Sequence record: PZ445527.1
Length of the DNA stretch: 64,000 nucleotides
Direction: 5' to 3' (one strand)
Source of the DNA: a phage
Made by a program: the position numbers and the translations under genes
Notes under the pieces: model-generated
The model's database searches: none
What the model was told of the DNA's origin: nothing
What the model saw: the letters and a program-made list of their open reading frames with translations, nothing else
Part shown: in pieces, positions 17,941 to 24,620 of the stretch
Layout: every line of letters starts with the position of its first letter
Position numbering within the stretch: position 1 is the first letter of the stretch

Positions 17941-18017
17941 TGGCGCGACTGATGGGATTTGAACCCACATTCCCTCCCGTGATAGGGGAGTACCATTACC
18001 AAGCCAGCCACGGTCGC
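17941..18017 (-). tRNA. tRNA with unusual anticodon loop CTATCAC (anticodon ATC, isotype uncertain)
   Basis: Acceptor GCGACCG/CAGTCGC, anticodon stem CTCCC/GGGAG, T-arm GTGGG-TTCAAAT-CCCAT, CCA encoded. Confidence 0.6.
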
Positions 18018-20298: not shown

Positions 20299-20327
20299 AT
20301 TATATTAGAAATTTAGCTTCATAGCAA
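20299..20327 (-). promoter_or_regulatory. sigma70-type promoter directly upstream of tRNA-Ser(GCT)/tRNA-Met
   Basis: TTGCTA, 17 nt spacer, TATAAT, with the tRNA 5-prime end about 15 nt downstream. Confidence 0.65.
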
Positions 20328-20823
20328 GAAAATTTTTCAAGTTTTCGGTAGACATCTCATCCACATCTACAGGAGAAACAAATCCATTTAATTGTCTAGC
20401 AAATTTTTTACCAGCAGGATCATTATCCCCAACAGCTACCAATTTAAAAGGTAGTAATTTCAATTGCTTTAATAGCGCTTTTCCTGGAGAAGAACCCAAC
20501 ATTGCCAAGGCTGGATAACCAGCGTTATGTAACGCAACTGCCTTAAATACAGATTCAGCAATCAATACCACTTTTTCATCTCCATTGAGAGTTTCTAGTC
20601 CCCATACACACTGTGTAGTAGAATAAGTAAAATATCTAGCTTCAAAGGGGCACTTACCATGACCTTTTGGAGCAGAAGGATTATAAGTCTGATAGCCTCT
20701 CAACATCCCAGAGAAGTCATACAATGGGACTGTTAGCCATCCTTCCGGGCTTAACCAGCAATGATATTTATCTGTATCAAACCCTCTAGATAAGAGATGT
20801 TCTGTTAGTTCATCAACAGTCAT
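20305..20823 (-). CDS. hypothetical protein (possible Toprim-like fold)
   Basis: 172 aa; VAVGDNDPAGKKF resembles a DxD Toprim motif, assignment tentative. Confidence 0.5.
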   Translation of the reverse strand: MTVDELTEHLLSRGFDTDKYHCWLSPEGWLTVPLYDFSGMLRGYQTYNPSAPKGHGKCPFEARYFTYSTTQCVWGLETLNGDEKVVLIAESVFKAVALHNAGYPALAMLGSSPGKALLKQLKLLPFKLVAVGDNDPAGKKFARQLNGFVSPVDVDEMSTENLKNFLAMKLNF

Positions 20824-20860
20824 ATTTGATCCCCTAGTTAGTTGTATAAATACATTATAC

Positions 20861-20894
20861 AGAAAAGCCCTGCGCTCTCCAGTGAACGCAGGGC
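20861..20894 (-). terminator. rho-independent terminator
   Basis: Stem GCCCTGCG...CGCAGGGC followed by T-run on minus strand, after SPFH gene stop. Confidence 0.55.
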
Positions 20895-20919
20895 TTACTT
20901 CGAATATTACGTGTGGGTA

Positions 20920-21867
20920 TTACTTGTTACGCATATCCATAATCATTTGGCCATCGTAACCAGTGCCAACCACAGTCTGCGGTACACCACCTTGATACTT
21001 CTGAGCACGAATCATTTCAACTTCTAGTTGCTTCCAGCGAATCATCTCAGGAGTAATGGTACGTTGCAGAGCGGCGTTAGCTTCAGCTTCTTTCTTAGCT
21101 GCGTACAGTTTAGCATCTGCATCACGTTCGTTTGCAATAGCTTGGTTGTTACGAGCTTCACGATCTGCTTCTGCTTGTTTAACCTTCTGCTGTGCTTCTT
21201 GTTCAACACGAGCCAACTCAGCTTTCGCAGCATTAACTTGTTCTTCACGAACTTTGGTATTCTGTACCTGTTCCATGATTACAGGCGGCAAAGTAATATC
21301 CTGAAGGAACACTTGCTTAACTGTGTAACCATAAGGGCGTGCATACTCTTCAACTTCCTGTTGAATTGCAGTTTGCAATTGAGCCTGAATTTTAGCATCA
21401 AACAAATCTTGTGCTTTAGGTACAGACTTACCAAACTCACGAATAGTAGACAGTAATTTTTCAGTTACATACTTGTCTAGTGCCTGATCCTGAGTACCTG
21501 CATTAATACGGTTAATCGGTGCCTTAGAACCATCAAACTGCAACATAACAGTCAGGTCAACAGTGGATTTAAACTTATCCTGACTAGGAACCTGAAGTTT
21601 ATCTAATTTTACAGCAATATCTTTTGTACTGAAAGTATCGAAAGATGCAAACGGGTTTACAATATGGAAACCAGGTAATACTGGATTAGGGTCTACTTTA
21701 CCAAGAAATGTTTGGGTTTTAACCGTACCATCAGAAACAATAGTATATGAATTAAAAGCTAGGATTAAACCTGCTAAACCAACTACAGCACCAATACCCC
21801 AACGTTTAATAGTACGGATTACTTTCTGCTCAGAAGTCAGTTCTTTCATATTTTTAGTAGCAAACAT
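20920..21867 (-). CDS. SPFH/band-7 (HflK/C, stomatin-like) domain protein
   Basis: 315 aa; N-terminal TM helix, SPFH-like core, long Ala/Gln/Glu-rich coiled-coil C-terminus. Confidence 0.65.
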   Translation of the reverse strand: MFATKNMKELTSEQKVIRTIKRWGIGAVVGLAGLILAFNSYTIVSDGTVKTQTFLGKVDPNPVLPGFHIVNPFASFDTFSTKDIAVKLDKLQVPSQDKFKSTVDLTVMLQFDGSKAPINRINAGTQDQALDKYVTEKLLSTIREFGKSVPKAQDLFDAKIQAQLQTAIQQEVEEYARPYGYTVKQVFLQDITLPPVIMEQVQNTKVREEQVNAAKAELARVEQEAQQKVKQAEADREARNNQAIANERDADAKLYAAKKEAEANAALQRTITPEMIRWKQLEVEMIRAQKYQGGVPQTVVGTGYDGQMIMDMRNK

Positions 21868-21901
21868 ATATTTCCTTTGTTTTAGTTACAGTTAATAAAA
21901 T

Positions 21902-21976
21902 TGGCCGAGGTGACAGGATTCGAACCTGCATAAAGGAATTTAGAAGACTCCTGCCTCTCCCTTAGACTACACCCCG
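21902..21976 (-). tRNA. tRNA-Arg (anticodon TCT)
   Basis: Acceptor CGGGGTG/CACCTCG, D-stem GTCT/AGGC, anticodon stem GGAGT/ATTCC loop CTTCTAA, T-arm GCAGG-TTCGAAT-CCTGT, CCA. Confidence 0.8.
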
Positions 21977-22479
21977 TTTAAGTATTTTTAAGAACTCTCG
22001 TAAAAACTCTTAAAAATACAGACGATACCGGGAGAGTCATAAGTCTCACTCATTAAGTATTTCAAGACAAAATACAGTAACGTCTATTATTTTCCAGTTT
22101 AAGTCAGGGTGACTTAGTGGTTATGTCCTGCGGTATATTGAGGACTCGGTTAGGCTTGGGGTCATGACTTCCCGCCTTTTGCTGCTACTCAACAGGAGTT
22201 ATCGCGAATTACCTGTGCTATTGTGCACCATTAGTGACATCTCTCATGCCAGCATTTCCCACTTTGTGGATAGCTTGAAAAACTACTCCGATACGGAGAA
22301 AGAACTTCACTATCCTAGAATACCTTCTAAAGTTCTTCTTTAGCCTGGACATAGTTAAATCGTAATAAAACTATTCAGCAGACCGGTTGGTTAGTCTGGA
22401 ACCAACTACCGCGTGGTTTAGGCAGTGCGCAACTAACCTCGGAAGCTTTTACGTTAAAAGCACCAGTTATCCAGTTCTT

Positions 22480-22552
22480 ACCGACCGTAGGATTCGAACC
22501 TACATCTTCCACCAGTTACGGCTTGATAATACCAATTATACTAGGACGGCAG
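22480..22552 (-). tRNA. tRNA-like element, possibly degenerate
   Basis: Canonical T-arm GTAGG-TTCGAAT-CCTAC and D-loop AATTGGTA, but no convincing anticodon stem and no encoded CCA. Confidence 0.3.
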
Positions 22553-22626
22553 TGTTACTACATAAGTGATTTCCACACCCCACTATTTATAAATTAGAAA
22601 AGAATTACTCTCTAATTTATGAATAT

Positions 22627-22655
22627 ATTATACAGAATTTATAAGCATTTAGCAA
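22627..22655 (-). promoter_or_regulatory. sigma70-type promoter reading into the tRNA-like element and non-coding region
   Basis: TTGCTA, 17 nt spacer, TATAAT. Confidence 0.6.
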
Positions 22656-23336: not shown

Positions 23337-23786
23337 TTAAGTTTTAGTGACAACAGGCTTATAAAATGTATGTCCCTTAATCTTAGTTGTTTTCTTAAAC
23401 TTCTTTGTCCAGTACGGTTTATCTTTACCACTATGGAAGTATAAAGCTCCATGTGTAGGATCTTGTGGTAAATCAACGTAGTATATCACTCTAGCTAAAT
23501 TCTTGGCGGTTTTCCAAGCCTCATCGGTTTTATCAACTTTTGGTCTCTTAGATACCCAAGAGAACTGGTTAGACTGATATACTACTTTACAGTAGGAATC
23601 TGGGAATTTACCGGAGTTTACACGGTTTTTAGTAACATGTGCAATCGCCGTCATTCCCTTTATGCCCTCACCACGACTTTCGAAATAGATATTTTTAGCA
23701 ATGCAATCTATTTCTTTTGCATCGTGCGATGCCTGACTACTAAAGCTGAAGGTAAGGGCAGCTACTAAAAGCAAAGCTGCCTTCAT
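23337..23786 (-). CDS. secreted cell-wall hydrolase (SleB/CwlJ-like)
   Basis: 149 aa; signal peptide then NIYFESRGE...TAIAHVTKNR...YQSNQFSW resembling the SleB/CwlJ hydrolase domain. Confidence 0.6.
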   Translation of the reverse strand: MKAALLLVAALTFSFSSQASHDAKEIDCIAKNIYFESRGEGIKGMTAIAHVTKNRVNSGKFPDSYCKVVYQSNQFSWVSKRPKVDKTDEAWKTAKNLARVIYYVDLPQDPTHGALYFHSGKDKPYWTKKFKKTTKIKGHTFYKPVVTKT

Positions 23787-23798
23787 TCTTTTTACTCC

Positions 23799-24620
23799 TT
23801 AAAATAGATCATATTCTAATCTATTGGGATTTTCTCGGTATCCATAAGACGTAAGAGTACCCCTCATATACTCTGCGTCAACAGGATTAGATGTTACTAG
23901 AACCACTTTTAGTGGTCTTTGACCTAAAAATAGTATATGATCTAATAAGTCTTTTCCTTGTACCTCTGGATCTCCTAAATCTGAGTCCATAAATAAATAG
24001 GATCCTGTGAAACTAAATATATCTGATAGTTCCAGCGCACCTATAACTGTACGACAAATAATGGACATTTCAGGTAGATCTCTAACATCGTCTATTAGAA
24101 TATTGGTCTGCTTCCCAATTTCTGCATTACATAAACCATTTACTAGTTTTTCTCTTTCCCCTTTAGCTTGTTCGAAAGTGGTGAAGCCAGGAGATACGAA
24201 AAACTTTCCACCTAATGTAATGCTATACACAAAACCCTCTGGGAGTAGTTCTACACCTACGGTTTTATTAGTATTAATCCTATTTAACTTAAAATTTGTC
24301 TCTCTTAGATTAATAATTCTGTTATCCCACGGTATAGTATTTATATGGTCGATCATATAAGGCGGCTCTTCACCATAATGGAGCAACCACGCTATTCGGT
24401 GTCCATAAATAATTGTGGGTTTATTATCTAAGAGCAAACTAACTCTGATGTACCCATCAGAGTTCTTACTACATATTTCTCTCCCAGCATATAGGGTGTG
24501 CCAAGTTTTATTCTTGTATTTATTAGGCTTATAAAATAATTTACCGGTATAAGGATTATACTCTATAATTTCTCGAATATAATCTATATATGGTAGTATT
24601 TGTTTTTGTAATTTACCCAT
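23799..24620 (-). CDS. HNH homing endonuclease (HNH_3-like)
   Basis: 273 aa; GHRIAWLLHYGEEPPYMIDHINTIPWDNRIINLR; own promoter at 24651..24679. Confidence 0.7.
   Translation of the reverse strand: MGKLQKQILPYIDYIREIIEYNPYTGKLFYKPNKYKNKTWHTLYAGREICSKNSDGYIRVSLLLDNKPTIIYGHRIAWLLHYGEEPPYMIDHINTIPWDNRIINLRETNFKLNRINTNKTVGVELLPEGFVYSITLGGKFFVSPGFTTFEQAKGEREKLVNGLCNAEIGKQTNILIDDVRDLPEMSIICRTVIGALELSDIFSFTGSYLFMDSDLGDPEVQGKDLLDHILFLGQRPLKVVLVTSNPVDAEYMRGTLTSYGYRENPNRLEYDLF

Follow-up and report, generated by a model that had tools for sequence, protein, structure and literature searches.

The phage sequence record PZ445527.1, of which a stretch of 64,000 nucleotides (nt) was analysed (the window), encodes on its minus strand a 315-amino-acid (aa) protein that is a bona fide member of the SPFH, or band 7, superfamily and is not an ortholog of HflK, HflC or QmcA. 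The gene is the counterpart of T5.080 in bacteriophage T5; it is dispensable for the growth of T5 on laboratory Escherichia coli (K-12), yet it is under strong purifying selection and near-universal in T5-like phages, and it occurs as an autonomous single-gene cassette common to several unrelated phage lineages. The interpretation we prefer, held with slightly more doubt than confidence, is that the product is an early-expressed, non-essential accessory membrane scaffold, about 24 subunits of which would form a periplasm-facing cage on a client in the host inner membrane.

The open reading frame (ORF) runs from an ATG at position 21867 to 20920 and is real, not a chance frame, because tblastn finds a homolog in 726 phage records (a count which, like all record counts given here, includes duplicates and fragments) and because all informative comparisons, at dS from 0.16 to ~2, give a ratio of non-synonymous to synonymous substitution rates (dN/dS) of 0.04-0.10. 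The window belongs to a T5-like phage of the genus Tequintavirus, the local 3 kb being 96.4% identical in nt sequence to Salmonella phage Shivani and 96% identical to T5, and it includes a T5-type cluster of 12 tRNAs (ARAGORN). The T5.080 copies (YP_006908.1 / AAX12012.1) are 98.7-99.0% identical to the window protein in aa sequence, have the same length of 315 aa and are encoded at the same place, after tRNA-Arg and before a bidirectional terminator. An earlier interpretation made from the letters alone (the sequence-only reading) had described an N-terminal transmembrane (TM) helix, an SPFH-like core and a long coiled-coil tail, and had named a profile search for SPFH/Band7 as its check. That search, now run, matches residues 52-225 to Pfam PF01145 (Band_7) with E=1.8e-17 and 64.4 bits, well above the gathering score of 23.6; PF01145 is present in every listed homolog, one fragment excepted, and the whole protein matches PHROG_200 with E=2.4e-86.

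The SPFH identification is correct, and it was already known. Databases have carried a band-7 label for the T5 gene since 2005, GenBank AY587007 describing T5.080 as 'putative transmembrane protein; IPR001107: band 7 protein' (AAX12012.1), and newer phage records use 'band 7 domain-containing protein' or 'SPFH domain-containing protein'. The RefSeq entry for T5.080 (YP_006908.1) reads 'lipoprotein' instead, the name borne by PHROG_200 and copied in many other phage records. We regard the probability that the protein is a lipoprotein as negligible, and exclude that identity for the window protein itself: there are no cysteines among its 315 residues, so that it has no lipobox and no acylation site and lipid modification is impossible. 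Only 5 of 115 close relatives have a cysteine in or near the anchor. The name probably goes back to other family members, since a lipobox-like motif (PS51257-like) is found in 31 of the 281 retrieved sequences, where a lipobox signal peptide replaces the TM anchor; these 31 amount to 17 independent sequences, 14 being near-identical members of one cluster. For this protein the widespread 'lipoprotein' label is an error, which later annotations should not repeat.

The architecture was examined in an AlphaFold2 monomer model built from a 39-sequence alignment, with a mean predicted local distance difference test (pLDDT) score of 75. All three structural elements of the sequence-only reading were recovered. 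The most hydrophobic window of 19 residues, with a Kyte-Doolittle score of 1.79, spans residues 25-43, beside a model helix at 11-38; the SPFH alpha/beta fold is present in the model, its core occupying residues 40-191; and the tail is predicted as a continuous helix of 76 residues (194-269) followed by a second helix (272-289), residues 206-275 being 69% A/E/K/Q/R. Fourier analysis of heptad or hendecad periodicity in the helix was uninformative. The C-terminal block is conserved in the family alignment (GGVPQTVVG..Y.G..I.D.R.K) and is colinear with the C-terminus of QmcA in hhalign, while the monomer model is of low confidence there, with pLDDT below 50 at residues 290-314. Judged on the model, the protein would possess the complete layout of a cage subunit as set out in PMC12624060, comprising an anchor, SPFH core, CC1, CC2 and a C-terminal cap segment.

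The resemblance to HflK/C or stomatin suggested by the sequence-only reading stands at the level of fold and fails, for HflK and HflC, at the level of sequence. Foldseek matches the model with probability 1.00 to erlin1/2 (E=4e-15), prohibitin 1/2, stomatin, HflK/C, QmcA, flotillin and major vault protein in the PDB, at 13-20% identity, and the matches to erlin, prohibitin, HflC/K, QmcA and stomatin span the whole length of the model. Among PDB sequences the closest E. coli paralog is QmcA, found by phmmer with E=3.3e-6 and by the family profile with E=3.4e-7; hhalign of the family profile against E. coli QmcA gives 96.3% probability and E=1.7e-9 over 247 columns, the C-terminal region included, so that homology to QmcA extends over the full length. 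The same comparison with HflC yields a local match of 32 columns at 69.5% probability, and with HflK a probability of 8.8%. The HflK and HflC chains, although present in the PDB set, were not retrieved by the phmmer sequence search at E<=1, no NCBIfam model (those of HflK and HflC included) matched at E<=1, and neither did any PADLOC defence-protein model at the same threshold.

QmcA (305 aa) is also of the single-gene homo-oligomer type, with similar length and one N-terminal TM segment, but identity in the hhalign alignment is only 24% and there are two differences. The qmcA gene is followed by ybbJ, encoding its NfeD partner (QmcA-YbbJ complex, PDB 8z5g), whereas a Pfam scan found no NfeD domain in the 8 ORFs flanking the phage gene in the window; and the phage protein has a positively charged N-terminal tail of 22 residues where QmcA has none, with an opposite predicted orientation. 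HflK and HflC form a periplasmic 24-subunit SPFH cage around FtsH (PDB 7vhp, 7wi3, 9cz2), but as a pair of paralogs; the phage protein is the product of one gene, no second SPFH gene was found among the 8 flanking ORFs scanned, and it lacks the 79-residue N-terminal extension of HflK. Similarly, erlin1/2 in the endoplasmic reticulum lumen and PHB1/2 in the mitochondrial intermembrane space, at 11-19% identity in the fold-search alignments, are hetero-oligomers of two paralogs in eukaryotic organelles, and the likeness of the phage protein to them is architectural with no sign of orthology.

The orientation that we propose for the phage protein is a prediction from charge. The 21 residues past the TM segment (42-62) are neutral, with two lysine or arginine residues (K/R) and two aspartate or glutamate residues (D/E), and as a topology rule we used the difference in net charge across the segment in place of a K/R count. 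Among the 115 close relatives this difference is negative in 113, and no relative has a positive value; the predicted N-in signal is much stronger in the phage family than in HflK itself. The lipobox-bearing relatives, one of which (P0123) is 50% identical to the window protein, offer a second line of evidence, in that a lipoprotein signal peptide means that their SPFH domain is exported. Solved SPFH proteins are rings or domes in which the C-terminal domains make the cap, and their subunit number follows CC1 helix length according to y=0.1782x+10.22 (PMC12624060). Entering the 76-aa CC1 into this regression gives 23.8 subunits, and the longer helices of relatives give 26-28; indels in the helix among relatives are of 11 or 22 residues in the family alignment, lengths that would keep the helix face. 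Extrapolation from CC1 length predicts, therefore, a homo-oligomeric dome of ~24 subunits. We think it likely that the N-terminus remains cytoplasmic and that the SPFH domain and the helical tail are periplasmic, an orientation like that of HflK/C, prohibitin and erlin, and likewise that ~24 copies would close into a dome which sits on the inner membrane from its periplasmic side and encloses a patch of it.

In the laboratory the gene can be lost. The genome of T5 st(0) is 8.5 kb shorter than wild type, and its annotated recombination site joins T5p066 to T5p079, removing the SPFH gene; in BF23 the entire block from hegA to the T5.081 homolog is absent, the SPFH gene included, as noted in a published comparison (PMC12752171), and tblastn of the syntenic loci in both phages did not find it. 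Epseptimavirus NG_S8 keeps a remnant of the last 43 codons only. In a CRISPRi-ART screen of T5 (PMC11879866, supplementary file 16), T5.080 was scored 'Not Fit' with 7 guides, a mean fitness of -4.28 and p=0.85; because the authors report lower guide consistency outside the pre-early region (PMC11879866), we treat this as supportive and not decisive. In nature the picture is otherwise, since 441 of the matching records encode the protein at >=80% identity and the DNA polymerase of the window is found at that identity in 444, from which it follows that nearly every sequenced T5-like phage has the SPFH gene.

These observations make it very improbable that the gene is a passenger in decay, without a role at present and tolerated within a hypervariable region. 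Its costless deletion in the laboratory and the 43-codon remnant are what such a passenger might show, but dN/dS remains at the low values given above at dS up to ~2, the reading frame is intact in 680 of the 726 matching records at >=80% coverage, the gene is as common as DNA polymerase among T5-like records, and its motifs are invariant across phage families.

Beyond T5-like phages, homologs occur in T4-like Straboviridae of Escherichia, Klebsiella, Enterobacter and Cronobacter (75-78% aa identity, with Lw1 at 76.5% nt identity over 808 nt), in Aeromonas T4-like phages (61-64%), in Proteus Privateervirus (75%), in Vibrio phages of ~139 kb (32-41%) and in a T7-like phage genome in Aeromonas caviae assemblies (50%, cluster representative P0123), where the gene lies between those for DNA polymerase and the 5'-3' exonuclease. 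ORF098c of 44RR, ORF064c of Aeh1 and ORF139c of RB43, the T4-like homologs given as SPFH/Band 7 Pfam matches in 2006 (PMC1524935), are true homologs at 61-78% identity and are likewise single SPFH genes. An exhaustive representative search returned 941 clusters at E<=1e-3 and 36 at E<=1e-30; giant-virus and most other phage SPFH proteins (Vi01-like and N4-like GIB1 among the virus-encoded examples) match at the level of fold only, at 13-21% identity. No conserved partner accompanies the gene, the 10 neighbours in four other lineages (Lw1, Aeromonas phage 31, Proteus 3H10_20, Vibrio phage, faergetype) belonging to unrelated PHROGs with no NfeD among them, and Band_7 was the only domain found in longer relatives. 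Joint transfer of the SPFH gene with a nucleotidyltransferase gene between Epseptimavirus and Lw1 was considered and rejected, the neighbours being unrelated (27% identity over 33 aa). A cellular origin through 'chromosomal' Aeromonas homologs was rejected also, because these lie inside the T7-like phage genome, and no clearly cellular close relative is therefore identified.

The T7-like genome deserves description in its own right. It is found within the Aeromonas caviae chromosome assembly CP026055.1 at 1268210-1289151 and also on contigs of ~44-46 kb; it carries a lipoprotein-type SPFH homolog together with a single-subunit RNA polymerase, T7-type SSB, helicase-primase, DNA polymerase A, a connector and a Gp10A-like capsid protein. 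Two further observations concern individual relatives. In the Tequintavirus Escherichia phage JLBYU43 (L012 2501-3517) the SPFH protein has 338 aa instead of 315, the additions lying outside the inspected columns 200-300. In Aeromonas phage 31 (L006 3891-4109) a 72-aa gene just downstream of the SPFH gene has a pilin-like N-terminus and a weak match to the PHROG 'pilin', and for 44RR ORF097c, numbered beside the SPFH gene, a prepilin N-terminal methylation motif has been reported (PMC1524935).

SPFH genes of viruses are noted in many genome papers, none of which assigns them a function; the literature we found on phage SPFH consists of genome descriptions noting the domain, with no experimental study of a phage SPFH protein or of T5.080, and other genome papers speculate about HflC-like effects on lysogeny or about host range (PMC12752171). 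All the solved SPFH complexes of the topology proposed here (HflK/C, PHB1/2, erlin1/2) have links to the quality control of membrane proteins, and in HflK/C it is the SPFH2 domains that the periplasmic domains of FtsH bind (PMC12624060). Since no phage partner was found, a host partner conserved across Enterobacterales, Aeromonas and Vibrio is called for. By analogy, the predicted dome may enclose a conserved host inner-membrane protein, the FtsH protease being the first candidate, a proposal that is speculative and, in our estimate, rather unlikely. The phage cage would then shift which membrane proteins are degraded during infection, with a benefit that might be visible only in natural hosts or conditions and not in K-12. 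The sequence-only reading had suggested an influence on host membrane protease activity or membrane organisation; as an interpretation it is partly supported. One contact that could link the phage protein to FtsH, that made by HflK Arg191, is unplaceable on it because no reliable HflK alignment exists.

Several points weigh against a periplasmic cage around an inner-membrane client, and the first concerns topology. A rule based on K/R alone had to be dropped, as it misclassified the HflK and HflC controls, and the net-charge rule separates the known controls weakly, scoring the phage protein at -3, HflK at -1 and both HflC and QmcA at 0. QmcA, the nearest E. coli paralog by sequence, faces the cytoplasm and acts together with an NfeD partner. 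Asp is absent from position +2 in all 31 lipobox-type sequences, and E. coli lipoproteins without Asp at that position are sorted to the outer membrane; these relatives would be bound for the outer membrane by this rule, a poor fit to an inner-membrane FtsH cage, and what the family conserves may be residence in the periplasm, not attachment to the inner membrane. HflK and HflC have next to no sequence similarity to the phage protein, and the structure model covers a monomer only, oligomer, localisation and client all being predicted. Finally, the location of the gene in an accessory region rich in counter-defence genes points at least as much to a role related to defence as to one related to a protease.

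The first of these objections could be taken to favour a cytoplasm-facing scaffold of the QmcA/stomatin type, organising inner-membrane microdomains from the cytoplasmic side. The closeness of QmcA in phmmer, profile and full-length hhalign comparisons and the poor discrimination of known controls by the charge rule would both agree with this, and the SPFH domain of QmcA is said to have been found facing the cytoplasm (N-out) by Chiba et al. in 2006. We consider it quite improbable nonetheless. The N-tail of the phage protein, 22 residues with 6 K/R, would need to cross the membrane, while the TM segment of QmcA starts at residue 1; the N-in charge bias is all but uniform among the close relatives and reversed in none; those relatives with lipoprotein signal peptides must be exported; and no NfeD partner gene was found near the phage gene, unlike the qmcA-ybbJ arrangement.

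The principal alternative to the periplasmic scaffold on a host client is suggested by genomic company. Directly downstream of the SPFH gene, at 20305-20823 on the minus strand, is a gene for a 172-aa Toprim protein that is 98.8% identical to T5.076 (rad), a 'DNA primase' in RefSeq. The Rad protein of the T5 family has been reported to inactivate retrons (bioRxiv 10.1101/2023.03.15.532788), and T5.076 is annotated 'subverts retron-mediated defense' in the CRISPRi-ART study (PMC11879866). A spontaneous T5 deletion of ~8 kb removes an 'Anti-Defense Island' that contains, besides, tRNA-Tyr, a gene pair acting against Ec83 and an anti-AVAST-2 activity still to be assigned; nine island fragments were tested, and the text of the paper is silent on whether the SPFH gene was included (bioRxiv 10.1101/2023.03.15.532788). 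From the boundaries of the similarly sized st(0) deletion, inside which the gene lies, and from its adjacency to rad, we infer that the SPFH gene is part of this island; it is in any case situated in an accessory region together with proven counter-defence genes.

On this basis the protein could be an envelope-level counter-defence or superinfection-exclusion factor, a periplasmic SPFH assembly that would stabilise or shield the envelope and could block membrane-acting abortive-infection effectors or envelope sensors, or keep a second phage from entering. To be dispensable in the laboratory but retained is the usual signature of anti-defence and exclusion genes, and the SPFH gene, dispensable in K-12, is near-universal and strongly selected. 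It has spread horizontally as a single-gene cassette among T5-, T4-, T7- and Privateer-like phages, and its relatives alternate between TM-anchored and lipoprotein-anchored forms, as exclusion proteins such as T5 Llp also do. In Lw1 the gene follows rI, a lysis-inhibition and superinfection sensor, and rI.-1, and in PhiSH19 an SPFH gene is listed beside a 'superinfection exclusion protein'. We rate this explanation as possible, though on balance unlikely. No report of an SPFH protein as an anti-defence or exclusion factor was found in the literature, leaving it without precedent; the Anti-Defense Island study assigned its anti-retron activities to other fragments (F6, F7, F8); and the neighbourhoods in Lw1 and PhiSH19 are single cases in hypervariable regions. 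The link with rad is limited to Tequintavirus. At >=80% identity rad is found by tblastn in 272 phage records against 441 for the SPFH gene, the two are unlinked in the other sampled lineages, and we have rejected a functional linkage between them.

The interval between these two genes differs from that in T5. There (NC_005859; L002 2630-4624) a plus-strand block of 1.9 kb, T5.077-079, separates rad from the SPFH terminator and is missing from the window (20823-20920); a short direct repeat, ATACAGARAA, is common to both junctions of the T5 block, which makes the difference a clean indel.

A broader proposal would draw the scaffold and the defence-related alternative together: the gene may be a mobile 'periplasmic cage' module common to virulent phages of Gram-negative bacteria, its early SPFH dome capturing or shielding a host membrane machine. 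Its target could be FtsH or a host defence that senses the envelope or acts on the membrane, such as that met by the unassigned anti-AVAST-2 activity or a stator-like sensor. We think this doubtful as a general statement, but if true it would be the first case of a defined role for an SPFH protein encoded by a virus, and would establish a new, periplasm-acting class of host-takeover or counter-defence factor. As annotation the result is ordinary, T5.080 being labelled band-7 in one GenBank record already and SPFH genes being routinely noted in phage genome papers. What the analysis adds is that the 'lipoprotein' label is corrected, that a periplasmic orientation and a cage size are predicted, that orthology to HflK, HflC and QmcA is excluded, that laboratory dispensability is set beside constrained, near-universal retention, and that the cassette is seen to have spread between phage families. 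T5 is amenable to experiment, and deletion strains exist already (st(0), BF23), so the role is directly testable.

Table 1. Features of the SPFH gene, its product and its transcription unit in the window.
Feature	Position	Strand	Basis
SPFH/band-7 protein coding sequence (CDS), stop included	20920..21867	minus	ORF listing, Pfam, PHROG, T5 annotations
N-terminal tail, codons 1-22, 6 K/R and 2 D/E, predicted cytoplasmic	21802..21867	minus	charge count
Single TM segment, codons 23-41, predicted uncleaved signal-anchor	21745..21801	minus	hydropathy maximum 25-43, model helix 11-38
SPFH alpha/beta core, codons 42-193, with invariant VPSQDK motif (residues 92-97)	21289..21744	minus	
Continuous 76-residue helix, codons 194-269, equivalent of CC1 (cage wall)	21061..21288	minus	model, block pLDDT 75-91
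Codons 270-315, CC2-like helix 272-289 and conserved C-terminal block, likely cap-forming	20923..21060	minus	model, conservation
Shine-Dalgarno AAGGA	21873..21877	minus	upstream sequence, 5 nt before ATG
Sigma-70-type promoter-like site, TTGCTA-17-TATAAT	22627..22655	minus	scan, 10/12 matches; at position of T5 early promoter 'P16-17'
Counterpart of T5 'RNAX' stable-RNA region, leader of SPFH transcription unit	21977..22626	minus	T5 misc_RNA rnaX annotation
tRNA-like element within RNAX counterpart	22479..22550	minus	Rfam tRNA 35.5 bits (gathering score 29); no ARAGORN call
tRNA-Arg(UCU), 34 nt upstream of CDS	21902..21976	minus	ARAGORN; Rfam tRNA 49.3 bits; order as in T5
Intrinsic terminator, 13-bp stem and T-run, 24 nt past stop	20865..20896	minus	scan; RNA fold

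The sequence-only reading had placed the gene in a phage early region, and this is borne out by its position in the early, tRNA-rich region of a T5-like phage, downstream of the T5-annotated promoter P16-17 (Table 1). The order on the minus strand is that of a T5-annotated early promoter, tRNA-Arg, the CDS and a strong terminator. Assignment of the promoter rests on the T5 annotation, because the scan overall was not enriched over shuffles. Between tRNA-Arg and the CDS the scan found no promoter-like site, and the two are for this reason probably co-transcribed; the SPFH mRNA would probably be released from a tRNA-containing early transcript. The terminator hairpin has a folding energy of -25.5 kcal/mol (z=-5.3), with none of 200 shuffles equally stable, and the T5 annotation describes the homologous hairpin as terminating efficiently in both directions. 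In the RNAX region, where the window has its tRNA-like element, a pseudo-tRNA is annotated in one T5 record.

Other genes of the region warrant brief comment. Two genes upstream of the SPFH transcription unit, at 23337-23786 on the minus strand, is apparently a second envelope-directed early gene; its product of 149 aa, called 'endolysin' in RefSeq T5, has what looks like a signal peptide together with a Hydrolase_2 domain (SleB-type cell-wall hydrolase, E=2.4e-25). At the edge of the tRNA region (23799-24620, minus) a 273-aa protein combines an HNH_3 endonuclease domain with cREC_REC, a cyclic-phosphate processing receiver domain (E=1.9e-12); the T5/BF23 gene at the corresponding position has 639 nt and possibly encodes a different protein, and its 'tail fiber protein' label looks mis-annotated. 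Within the tRNA cluster, tRNA-Asp (17941-18017, minus) carries A34 (anticodon AUC) instead of the G found in T5 st(0) and BF23 (GUC), along with three further substitutions, and a tRNA-Asp with A34 is unusual.

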